Shown in pieces: positions 10,925 to 54,399 of a stretch of 64,000 nucleotides of DNA. Under the pieces are notes generated by a model. The model was not told where the DNA came from. It did not search any database and was given only the letters and a program-made list of their open reading frames with translations. Numbering within the stretch: the stretch's first letter is position 1; each line of letters begins with the position of its first letter. A program made the position numbers and the translations under genes. The DNA lies in contig JASCQW010000109.1 in NCBI GenBank assembly GCA_030264375.1, positions 56,906,778-56,970,777 of the forward strand, given 5' to 3'. The DNA is from Carcharhinus longimanus. Taxonomy: Eukaryota.

Positions 10925-11239
10925 ATTGCGATCCATGCATTCGACATTCCAGCATGGCAATACATAGGGATCTATCATTCAGAGAGGATAATCATAAAAT
11001 ATGGTCCACAGACTTCAATGTGAGACCTATCATCAGTGGAGTAGCCAGTATGGGTCCATTGTTAATTGGATATAATATATTGTATCGCAATATCTTCTGA
11101 TATTCATTTGATGTCTACTTCATGAAGTCACACCCTTTAGCTTTGGTAAGATTGCCAAGGCATCCAAGTATGTGGCTGAGAAACAATCTGATACAAATGA
11201 AAATGAAATGTTTCAAACTCAAAACTGCTTCTGAGCATA

Positions 11240-11450
11240 AAAGCAAAATATTGCAGATGCTGGAATCTGAAACAAAAACAGAAAATGCTGGAAATTCTCA
11301 GCAGGTCTGACAGCATCTGTGGAGAGAGAATAAAACTAATGTTTCGAGTCTGGATGACCCTTTGTCAGTTTCATCCAGACTTGAAACGTTGGCTCTATTC
11401 TCTCTCTCCACAGGTGCTGTCAGACCTGCTGCGATTTCCCAGCATTTTTT
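11240..11450. mobile_element. Penelope-like terminal-repeat palindrome with degenerate hammerhead motif
   Basis: inverted arms ~11281-11357 / 11371-11450; minus strand CTGACAA-AGGGTCATCCAGACTC-GAAA-CATTA. Confidence 0.7.
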
Positions 11451-11859: not shown

Positions 11860-12197
11860 GGGTGGCATGATGGCACAGTGGTTAGCACTGCTGTTTCACA
11901 GCACCAGGGACCTGGGCTCAATTCCTGGCTTGGGTCACCATCCGTGTGGAGTTTGCACATTCTCCCCGTATCTGTGGAGTTTGCACATTCTCCCCGTATC
12001 TGTGTGGGTTTCCTCTGGATGCTCCGGCTTCCTCCCACAGTCCAAAGATGTGTGGGTTGGGTGGGTTGGCTGTGCTAAATTTCCCCTTAGTCTCAGGGGG
12101 ACGAGCATAGAGATATGAGGATAGGGCCTGGGTAGAATTGTGGTCGATGCAGACTCAATGAGCCAAATGATTTCTTTCTGTACTGTAGGATTCTATA
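11860..12197 (+). mobile_element. Full-length HE1 V-SINE with CR1 tail and internal 28-bp tandem duplication
   Basis: TGGCACAGTGGTTAGCACTGCTG head; tgtggagtttgcacattctccccgtatc twice at 11945-12000. Confidence 0.9.
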
Positions 12198-20644: not shown

Positions 20645-20946
20645 AAAGTTTATTTATTTATCAGTGTCACAAGTAGGCTAACATTAACACTGCGATAAAG
20701 TTACTGTGAAAATCCCCGAATTGCCACACTCTGGTGCCTGTTCGGGTACACTGAAGGAGAATTTAGCATGTCAAATCCACCTAACCAGCACGTCTTTTGG
20801 ACTGTGGAATGGAAACCAGAGCACCTGGAGGGAACCCATGCAGACATGAGGAGAACATGCAGACTCTGCACAGATAGTGACCCAAGCCAGGAATTGAACC
20901 CGGGTCCCTGGCACTGAGAGGCAGCATTGCTAACCACTGTGCTACT
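20645..20946 (-). mobile_element. HE1-like V-SINE, alternative tail
   Basis: full head, body and tail. Confidence 0.88.
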
Positions 20947-23550: not shown

Positions 23551-24527
23551 TAATATAAGGCATACAGGAAAATTACTGGTGTCCTTCACAATATCATGAC
23601 GGTCAAAAGGTTTATTGTATTTTTTCATCAGTATGCTGAGGAAGGAGGCGAACTAAGTTAGAGTCTGTTTACATGCTGCTAAGGCAAGAAAATGATTTCT
23701 TCGAGCAATAGAACATCCGGCTCAGTGCTGCAAGTGTTAAATCAGTTGGGCTTTCAAAGCAGTCAAACAGGACAAAGCTGGTGGTCTGCTCTGAAACACC
23801 CACCGGGCTGAAACCTTCATACAAATAGAAATTGTACATGTCCACAGAAAATAAATATCTTCTTAAAAATAATTTCGAAGAGAATCCAATGCTAGCTGGA
23901 TTTAATGTACCAAATCCCTGTGCTTAAACCCAGCAATCATTGCTCTTTGTACTCTTAGTAAAAAGATGAGCCAGCTTAAAACGGCTCCAAAGGACACAAA
24001 CTCAAACCACATCAGAGGTCAAATGCCAGACTATATACCATGATTGCATGATTTGTGGAGCTTTAATGCAATGTCTGGTCTCATGTGGGTAAAAAGCAAG
24101 AGCAAGGCAGAGATGTTCAATGCCCTCTTTACAAGAATATAAGCAGACTTAATTTTCTTGCTCCTGCATCGGAGAACTTGCACGCACATGAAATCTTCGG
24201 AGCCTGTGATCATGTGAGCAAAATGTGTCCCATCCAACAGATGGTGCGCTTTCCCTATCACAATCTTAATGGTAAATACAATTTTATCACATTTATAAAA
24301 ATCGGAACAGCATATCAGACTGCCAAGTGCAGCAAGCTAACAGCAAGTCGTGAAGTTCAAAACATTTGTCTGTCCGCATTTTCCTCCAACAGAACTTGAG
24401 GAGCTCCTTGAACTTCAATTCCTATTTATTAGCAATATATTAGCTAAATTGAAACTCAGGGGGTTTAACTGAGAATGGCGGAGTGGATACAAAATTGGCT
24501 GAAAGACAGAAGGCAGAGTACCGGTGA

Positions 24528-24616
24528 ACGAAAACAGAAAATGCTGGAAAATCTCAGCAGGTCTGACAGCAGCTGTGGAGAGAGGTTTTGAGTCTGGATG
24601 ACCCTTCGTCAGAGCT
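24528..24616 (-). mobile_element. Penelope-like terminal-repeat fragment with degenerate hammerhead motif
   Basis: same family as 11240-11450; CTGACGA-AGGGTCATCCAGACTC-AAAA. Confidence 0.65.
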
Positions 24617-24904
24617 ACTGGAGAGGACTGGTGAATGGTTGTTTTCAAACTGGAGGGAAGTGTGCAATGGGATACTCTGGCGATTACTGCCTTGTTTCAA
24701 TACGATTTGGACTTGGATGTGCAGGGCATAACTGCAGCTGATACAAAACTTGCAAGCGTGGTCAACAATGAGGAGTTTGGCAACAAATGTTAGAAGAACA
24801 TAAACTAGTGAAATAGGGAGAATCATGGTAGATGCAATTTAATGCAGACTAGTGTGAAATAATTCATTTTGATAGGAATAGTGGGAGATGATATAAAGTA
24901 AATT

Positions 24905-25329: not shown

Positions 25330-25610
25330 GATTTATTTATTTATTTGTCACACTTCAGCACCTGTTCAGGTACACTGAGGGAAAATTTAACATGGCCAAT
25401 GGCAATTTTAGCAAGGCCAATCAATCTAACCTGCACATCTTTGAACTGTGGGAGGAAACCAGAGCACCCGAAGGAAACCCACGCAGACACGATGAGAATG
25501 TGCAAACTCCACTCAGACAGTGACCCAAACTGGGAATCAAATCCAGGTCCCTGGTGCTGTGGAGCAGCAGTGCTAACCGTTGTGTCACTGTTCTGCCCCT
25601 TGCCACCGTG
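25330..25610 (-). mobile_element. HE1-like V-SINE, internally deleted alternative tail
   Basis: head and V body present. Confidence 0.8.
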
Positions 25611-35694: not shown

Positions 35695-35995
35695 CCCGTG
35701 ATGGCAAAGTGGCTAGCACTCCTGCTTCACAGTAGCAGGGACCCGGGTTCGATTCCAACCTTTGGTGGCAACCTGTGTGGAGTTTGCATGTTCTCTCCGT
35801 GTCTGCGTGGGATTCCTCCGGGTGCTGTGGTTTCCTCTCAGTCCATAAGTGTGCGGGTTAGATGGATTGGCCATGCTAAATTCTCCCTTGGTGTCCCAAG
35901 ATTGGTGGGGTAAATACGTAGGGTGTGAGAATCTCCGTCGGAGAGTTGTTGCAGACATGATGGACCTAATGGCCCCTTCTGCACTGTAGCTATTC
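35695..35995 (+). mobile_element. HE1 V-SINE with CR1 tail
   Basis: head GGGACCCGGGTTCGATTCC, body, tail. Confidence 0.87.
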
Positions 35996-43481: not shown

Positions 43482-43669
43482 CACAGTAAGAAGTCTCACA
43501 ACACCAGGTTAAAGTCCAACAGGTTTATTTGAAGCAAACACCACTAGCTTTCGGAACTGCTATTCTCACCAAGGCCATCCCCACACCCCCACTTCTTGCC
43601 TTCAAACAACCACACAACCTCAAACAGACCATTGTCCACAGCAAATTACCCAGCCTTCAGGAGAACAGT
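43482..43669 (+). mobile_element. Penelope-like element: inverted terminal repeat joined to ORF fragment
   Basis: cacagtaagaagtctcacaacaccaggttaaagtcc (as at 53877), then LTKAIPTPPLLAFKQPHNLKQTIVHSKLPSLQE. Confidence 0.75.
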
Positions 43670-53780: not shown

Positions 53781-53829
53781 TTATCTGTTCTGGGAGTTAT
53801 GCCTTATAGCCATTCTTCATTCATTGGAA

Positions 53830-54039
53830 GCCATGATGTGGAGATGCTGGTGCGGGACTTGAACGGGCACAATAATAAGTCTCACAACACCAGGTTAAAG
53901 TCCAACAGGTTAATTTGGAATCACCAGCTTTCGGAGCGCTGCTCCTTCATCAGGTGAGTCACCTGATGAAGAAGCAGTGCTCCAAAAGCTCATGATTCCA
54001 AATAAACATGTTGGACTTTAACCTGGTGTTGTAAGACTT
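53830..54039. mobile_element. Penelope-like terminal-repeat palindrome with two back-to-back hammerhead motifs
   Basis: 81-bp inverted arms 53877-53957 / 53959-54039; CTGATGA..(G/A)AAAGCT on each strand. Confidence 0.8.
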
Positions 54040-54274
54040 CTGACCATTTTTTGGCGTTTCAGTAAATTAGCATAATTACTGCATGTCAATTGTGTACGGT
54101 AGGTGGAAAGAGTGGACCTTTCTGTTTTGTCTACACTGCCTTAGATTTTATTGGTCATTTGTCTGTCAAGACAAAAATGAGCCAGAACAATTATATTCTA
54201 ATGGCCATTTTTAGGCACCAGTATACCTCAAGTAACACATGCATTCCTGCAATAATATTAATCATCTTTATTAA

Positions 54275-54399
54275 GGGCGGAATTTTACCAGCACGTCTGC
54301 CCAAGTTTCGCATGATCCCGCCCGAGGCCAACAAAAATACTGTTCTCCGAGCTGAGCCCCTCCCGGAATCGGGACTGGCATGCTGGTAAGACTCTGGCC
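54275..54399. mobile_element. Harbinger-type MITE
   Basis: 21-bp TIRs matching 16/21; TAA duplicated at 54272-54274 and 54400-54402. Confidence 0.75.

Follow-up and report, generated by a model that had tools for sequence, protein, structure and literature searches.

A hammerhead-bearing palindrome in Carcharhinus longimanus as the probable product of a Penelope-like retroelement insertion

We analyzed a 64,000-nucleotide stretch of the Carcharhinus longimanus genome (referred to as the window here), in which a first-pass annotation had picked out a 163-bp palindrome encoding two divergent hammerhead ribozymes. The palindrome itself was borne out: its arms at 53877-53957 and 53959-54039 face each other about a single G at 53958, with 73 of 81 positions complementary and no insertions or deletions. 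It is the strongest ungapped palindrome of the window, the sole other one above the threshold of our scan being located at 11322-11406, and it folds with a z score of -21, a value that none of 200 shuffled sequences equaled. The symmetric 163 bp did not hold up as a unit, being the core of an asymmetric insertion of ∼216 bp. The left arm runs ∼45 bp further, into a tail and the first bases of an open reading frame (ORF), while the right arm stops at 54044, and copies elsewhere likewise have one arm ∼40 bp longer than its partner. The coordinates of these features and of two further insertions in the window are collected in Table 1. The candidate duplication flanking the insertion is decayed and scores 4, under the threshold of 7 that was used for counting duplications. 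As for the surroundings, the window contains 1,212 N and no long ORF, a further high-copy repeat lies just to the right of the insertion (54268-54355, seen as a spike in contig depth), and repeats of 100 to 220 bp with 71 to 85% identity, which we take to be SINE-like, are dispersed over the whole window in both orientations (e.g., 11862-12117, 20811-20942, 25398-25588, and 35702-35840).

Table 1. Positions and strands of the features discussed, as numbered in the window.
Feature	Position	Strand	Basis
Whole insertion, ~216 bp: two 3'-end stubs (pLTR) from a single Penelope-like family, arranged head to head	53829..54044		Family-reference BLAST against the window; arm ends
Long arm: putative RNA start A (53959, -6 from the hammerhead core), hammerhead, pLTR, tail, ending just past the ORF ATG (53834-53832)	53829..53959	-	Same pLTR-tail-ORF order in a longer family copy (L194)
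Tail of ~38 nt plus first ORF bases, long arm only	53829..53870	-	Bimodal 3' ends among 100 arms
Minimal type I hammerhead with intact core words and G at position 17 (53925), predicted non-cleaving	53921..53957	-	Motif; NUH rule
Junction: five-base interrupted palindrome about G53958, putative RNA start plus one extra G	53956..53960		Junction-base counts; G at -7 in 0/18 long natural copies
Short tail-less arm; second hammerhead, predicted dead, without G12 (53984) and without one base of stem I (53992)	53959..54044	+	Motif reading; family-reference BLAST
Candidate 10-bp target-site duplication, left copy, weak alone	53818..53827	+	8/10 alike
Candidate 10-bp target-site duplication, right copy	54045..54054	+	8/10 alike with left copy
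Second family A insertion: inverted arm with no tail, ending at ~+16 and abutting ORF sequence immediately ahead of the endonuclease domain, followed by an N gap	43485..43669		Family-reference comparison
Family B insertion: hammerhead-containing tailed arm (minus strand, mutated core) and inverted arm starting inside the hammerhead	11236..11448		Family comparison

Both hammerheads read as the annotation had quoted them. The one on the minus strand has intact CTGATGA and GAAA words but a G at position 17, which is found in 4 of 139 arms of the GCT type, and the one on the plus strand has lost the G of GAAA by a CpG-type change. According to the NUH rule, a G at position 17 blocks hammerhead cleavage. 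We agree with the annotation that the two are inactive, since by the rules for hammerheads both are predicted to be dead, the minus-strand arm because of G17 and the plus-strand arm because G12 is lost. A search with hammerhead models, as had been suggested, gave chance matches only, with no Rfam hammerhead at an E value of ≤5, and the ribozyme call therefore rests on motif and structure. The motif fits the minimal type I hammerheads of Penelope-like elements (PMC4209133), in line with the reading as a minimal hammerhead. The majority sequence of the family has CUGANGA and GAAA, stems I and II, a remnant of the palindromic helix III, and a cleavage triplet that conforms to NUH, and 31 of 66 arms are intact. 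At only 6 of 33 loci with exactly the same axis as here are both cores intact. In the predicted dimer fold the AGCT remnants pair only partly, and a transcript of the whole unit would, as modeled, form one long hairpin that buries both hammerheads. We observed no hot spot of 5' ends at the cleavage site, with 6 of 87 ends at +26 to +29 and 8 of 162 at +26 to +31 (positions counted from the hammerhead core). An apparent pile-up at +30/+32 was an alignment artifact of a 7-nt subfamily insertion and disappeared when several references were used. The shape of the palindrome could be explained without cleavage, with the hammerheads as passengers. By eye, the subfamilies (with L105, L133, and L106 among the examples) are distinguished by the 7-nt insertion, which lies directly after the cleavage site, and by the stem II variants GGAGC/GCTCC, GGAAC/GTTCC, and GGGG/CCCC, all of which retain pairing.

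The annotation had linked the palindrome to Penelope elements, and this was confirmed: both arms are pLTR ends with a minimal hammerhead, from an abundant family with reverse transcriptase (RT) and GIY-YIG domains (family A here). A 27-mer from the arms has 23,104 exact matches in the 2.68-Gb genome and a degenerate hammerhead pattern has 7,780, while the backwards control of each has none. In extended copies, the sequence upstream of the hammerhead is a 3' untranslated region (UTR), preceded by GIY-YIG and RT. The GIY-YIG domain of one copy (L177) scores above the Pfam cutoff (E = 7e-5), and RT fragments (RVT_1) were found below it (E = 5e-6 and 2e-5). RT and GIY-YIG, the latter at the C terminus, are collinear in L194 and L177, but every copy seen is broken, and none of the family copies examined is an intact autonomous copy or has an intact ORF; an open frame of 930 amino acids was an N gap, and one of 1,071 amino acids came from a locus with no long gap-free ORF of the family. 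L194 has the order inverted stub, hammerhead pLTR, tail, ORF, UTR, and second hammerhead, the latter in a truncated pLTR. Its tail ends at the equivalent of the ORF's ATG, and only 4 of 79 tail ends reach ATGGCT. At another locus (L091:1692-2750, minus strand), a frame of 352 amino acids with what we take to be a cysteine-switch motif like that of matrix metalloproteinases adjoins a Penelope fragment. Translations of L177, L182, and L186 have a CX4CxxC linker before GIY-YIG and a pair of cysteines within the core of GIY-YIG. A CX2-5CxxC linker and two core cysteines mark the Neptune/Nematis type (PMC8557442), to which family A would belong by these motifs. The arms differ from their majority sequence by ∼12%, CpG sites included. 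Contigs from two other samples join the unique left flank to the tail arm (by 63 and 21 nt), suggesting that the insertion is probably old and shared.

To describe how such arms are arranged in the genome, we used the first 100 of the 23,104 anchor matches, a sample taken mostly from the start of contig C1. The 3' ends of these arms are bimodal, with 54 at +76 to +92, 44 at +110 or beyond, and only 2 in between. Of the 87 arms left after 13 N-bounded ones were dropped, 54 have inverted sequence of the same family at most 50 nt away, and of 53 partnerships between inverted pLTRs, 44 combine an arm with a tail and one without (pairs with both arms in the sample are counted twice). The same head-to-head form of tailed and tail-less ends also occurs with coding arms of ∼1 kb (L191 and L195). 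In most head-to-head pairs the two 5' ends are independent, spacers or filler of unrelated sequence being present, and within the window itself the second insertion of family A (43485-43669) has an axis that differs from the one at 53958. An inverted pLTR with a one-sided tail and a target-site duplication is a published architecture (PMC3846280, PMC8557442, and PMC8969392), and the palindrome is an insertion type already known for EN+ Penelope-like elements. Of the two origins that the annotation had offered, this supports the recurrent by-product of Penelope inversion.

The other proposal was a self-propagating, nonautonomous palindromic element that gives a ribozyme on either strand, for which many copies with an identical axis would have been expected. 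We counted exactly this junction in 53 of 607 close head-to-head pairs; by eye, 8 of the first 50 close pairs had the spacing of the window palindrome. Matches ranked by similarity all have the axis of the query by selection and were excluded from these frequencies. The axis thus varies, but not at random, as the annotation had considered it might, since this is the commonest single junction and lies at a pile-up of 5' ends (see below). It is found in at least 53 copies, ∼3 times what an even spread over the 31 searched spacings would give (P = 1e-10), and copies with it insert as single units with target duplications, as a mobile unit of its own would. These duplications were detected at 22 of the 34 loci where both arms have at least 73 bases, compared with 0.3 in permutations (score threshold, 7), and their called lengths are 8 to 13 bp, ∼10 bp. 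The remaining evidence points the other way. Among the 49 exact-axis sites analyzed of the 53, C occupies the center 24 times and G 18 times when read along the tail arm (7 unscorable; P = 0.44). The two arms of a locus belong to the same subfamily in 13 of 14 typable loci, while several subfamilies occur across loci, and rare non-CpG variants are common to both arms of a locus 54 times, versus 23.2 expected and a maximum of 38 in 2,000 permutations. At 33 loci, none of 71 alignment columns distinguishes arms with a tail from those without (best P = 0.027), and the distance among long arms (0.174) is no smaller than that between the long and the short arm of the same locus (0.170). Several subfamilies, either center base, no arm-specific changes, and duplications of ∼10 bp together indicate that the palindromes are products of insertion and not a self-propagating element. 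The scarcity of loci with both cores intact and the predicted hairpin that would bury both hammerheads weigh against it as well, so that this possibility is largely refuted and highly improbable. More generally, the copies have neither the fixed structure nor the diagnostic changes of a nonautonomous element with its own master (retrozyme, SINE, or MITE-like). Later gene conversion could add to the likeness of arms within a locus, but it would neither randomize the center base nor yield varied axes. At two places (L213/L214, at G000:C1:25813988 and 25814190, and L252, at G000:C122:38284108 and 38284285), two junctions with the same axis lie ∼180 to 200 bp apart in direct orientation, reflecting either a palindromic unit duplicated locally in tandem or an assembly duplicate beside an N gap. 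A mirror duplication made in assembly is hardly credible as the source of the window palindrome: no contig from four runs bridges the axis with at least 31 letters on each side, but the arms mismatch at 8 of 81 positions and are of unequal length, the form recurs with target duplications at dozens of independent loci, and the contigs of the two other samples already connect the unique left flank with the tail arm.

The position of the preferred axis coincides with the start of stem I, where 15 of the 87 5' ends fall within -10 to -3. In an enlarged set, from which arms chosen by the core pattern had been removed, 36 of 162 ends do so (4.5 per nt), compared with 0.8 to 2.4 per nt downstream and 0.4 per nt at -50 to -21. 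The pile-up is not a single base but ∼8 nt broad with its mode at -4, and the reference sequence at -10 to -25 varies between subfamilies, which may shift mapped ends. Position -7 is C or T in each of the 18 long natural copies and G in none; by a loose match, all 18 also have TATA-like words at -27 to -33, ∼30 nt above the A at -6. Non-C bases at -7, tallied over the first 100 of 1,844 matches, comprise 68 G, 17 T, and 15 A, whereas the control position -3 has G in 51 and A in 49 of the first 100 of 482 (both counted by eye; Fisher P = 1e-5). The natural upstream sequence was missing from 22 of 23 inspected loci with G. A T precedes the extra G in 65 of 100 cases, or in 50 of 85 once perfect palindromes are left out (by eye), a pattern compatible with an added A as well as with a short fold-back. 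Against fold-back onto the complement of stem I, the GG that it predicts before the start was seen in 16 of 100 cases by eye, no more than background. An extra 5' G has been read as a copy of the cap in L1 (PMC9341517), but it can instead be templated, by self-annealing of cDNA ends or by fold-back. Rotifer pLTRs contain TATA and initiator-like words (PMC3846280), while the promoter in Drosophila virilis is reported to be internal and TATA-less (PMC2377424), so that the TATA spacing is not general. Taken from the DNA junctions, the pile-up likely marks a capped RNA start.

A second family in the window (family B, 11236-11448) has no detectable similarity to family A. The annotation had described the same design at 11240, which is correct for the head-to-head arrangement but not for the two hammerheads, as the inverted arm starts ∼11 nt inside the hammerhead and is without the catalytic core. 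Most of the 30 best copies of this family start 4 to 6 bases before the core (by eye; the query itself began at -4), and at least 4 of the 30 loci listed (L310 to L339) have a TATAAA-like word ∼30 nt above the A of stem I (by eye). The base before this A is G in 23 and A in 5 among 100 listed copies, or 16 to 5 without perfect palindromes (by eye), the other seven G's being perfect palindromes that need no cap. The site also reads as a pyrimidine tract followed by YAG, similar to a splice acceptor. A single arm of family B, beginning at the A of stem I and with a possible decayed flanking duplication, is located inside another repeat at 24527-24617.

We consider it almost certain that the palindrome is a Penelope-end insertion that arose de novo. 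The best explanation overall, to which we assign a probability of roughly 0.7, is one old insertion of a tailed and a tail-less stub, likely built during insertion, when the first 90 to 125 bases of the element's probably capped RNA would have been copied onto the two cut ends of the target. It starts from the family identity, the asymmetry, the variable axis, the target duplications, the two preferred 3' ends, and the 5' pile-up with its extra G, all of which were observed. As for how such copying might proceed, a capped start and twin cDNAs are the mechanism that we favor, with some reserve. A promoter with TATA and initiator in the pLTR would start the RNA six bases ahead of the hammerhead core, at an A, and the element's protein would nick both target strands ∼10 bp apart. 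Two cDNAs, ∼125 and ∼88 bases long, would be primed, one from each of the start sites that bound the tail, and both would run off the 5' end of the RNA, where copying of the cap would add a C and often a further A. The cDNA ends would then be self-complementary over 4 to 6 pairs about one G-G mismatch and could anneal, which would place the axis at this position, and repair of the mismatch would leave G or C at random. At other junctions, either cDNA would have stopped earlier or would derive from a longer RNA. Such a mechanism would account for the axis, the unpolarized center, the one-sided tail, and the target duplication with no need for a special element. Extended to Penelope-like elements in general, at slightly under even odds, head-to-head inversions may arise when a sense, capped RNA that begins with stem I serves as the template for twin priming, with copying of the cap completing a short palindrome that seals the insertion. 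This cap-completed palindrome would be interrupted in family A and perfect in family B.

A different origin for the mirror arm would be fold-back, in which a single cDNA, possibly made on antisense RNA, primes itself and copies itself into the second arm, as has been proposed for head-to-head palindromic junctions of rotifer Penelopes (PMC3846280). The greater likeness of arms from the same locus than of arms from different loci agrees with this, as does the finding that the bases before the inferred start often extend the mirror by 1 to 3 nt. A tail-less first cDNA could not, however, yield a tailed second arm, and the center base shows no polarity (24 versus 18). Moreover, both arms end at the two known start sites, the 5' ends of most pairs are independent of each other, with spacers or filler of unrelated sequence, and a sense template would agree with the extra G being on the sense side, so we regard fold-back as unlikely. 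The pile-up could also be real without being a capped start, for instance a splice acceptor, a pause of the enzyme, or microhomology in a short palindrome, with the extra G templated. In D. virilis, the 5' end of helix I coincides with the end of an intron (PMC4209133), and the breadth of the pile-up and the pyrimidine tract with YAG in family B could be read in the same way. Yet there is no AG at the site in family A, and what lies above the G is unrelated flanks or partner arms and not a shared exon (22 of 23 G loci being without natural upstream sequence); TATA-like words ∼30 nt upstream recur in two families that have no detectable similarity. This reading is therefore quite improbable to us, and the capped start remains the one that we prefer.

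Published EN+ Penelope insertion units resemble the present one in their head-to-head arms, a tail of 30 to 40 bp at one end, a target duplication of ∼10 bp, a palindrome at the junction, the hammerhead, and TATA plus initiator-like words in the pLTR (PMC3846280, PMC8557442, and PMC2377424). They differ in that here both arms are reduced to the pLTR end, with no coding sequence, and in that the statistics of the junctions favor two cDNAs made on a sense, capped template over the published antisense self-priming. The protein of PAc, the Poseidon element of Anolis carolinensis, both cuts the two strands and extends them, with two start sites bounding the tail (PMC11167929), and its two reverse-transcription start sites match the two 3' ends found here. 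In vitro, PAc requires downstream ORF sequence but not hammerhead cleavage, and no ends were reported at the cleavage site. Unlike in family A, where the ATG lies at the end of the tail and CX4CxxC precedes GIY-YIG, the PAc ORF starts inside the hammerhead and there is no Cys linker, and the part of that account available to us offers no explanation of the inverted arm (PMC11167929). The hammerheads here share with the minimal ones of metazoan Penelope-like elements an extra base before stem II, G10.1-C11.1, a palindromic AGCT for helix III, and a short helix I (PMC4209133). The same source notes thousands of truncated copies and pairs of hammerheads on opposite strands 100 to 700 bp apart, whereas the motifs here are 10 bp apart and both mutated.

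Non-LTR retrozymes likewise have no ORF, contain hammerheads, and derive from Penelope-like pLTRs (bioRxiv 10.64898/2026.07.22.740005; PMC7229834). They are tandem direct repeats that give circular RNA between hammerheads of the same strand (bioRxiv 10.64898/2026.07.22.740005), and we rejected this class for the window palindrome, which is an inverted pair on opposite strands with no sign of a master copy. A MITE was rejected as well, given the asymmetric ends, duplication calls of 8 to 13 bp, and retroelement sequence. The extra G is shared with the 5' ends of full-length L1 copies (PMC9341517). 

In L1 twin priming, both target ends prime cDNA and a different, upstream part of the RNA becomes inverted. 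Here, by contrast, both cDNAs would copy the same stretch. For Penelope-like elements, our literature search, with most subscription papers outside its scope, returned general reviews only and nothing relevant on a cap-based or twin-priming account, which does not imply absence from print.

The palindrome itself is unremarkable, being the decayed remnant of a retroelement insertion of a familiar type, and its value is mechanistic. How Penelope-like elements form inverted repeats has been described as unresolved (PMC8557442 and PMC3846280). The junction statistics yield predictions at the level of single bases, namely, an RNA start at stem I, an extra G that depends on the cap, a random center base, and two cDNAs, and the in vitro system for Penelope-like elements (PMC11167929) could test these directly. 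If the proposed mechanism is true, thousands of genomic stubs would record the position of the promoter and the step that seals the insertion, and they would argue against antisense self-priming.
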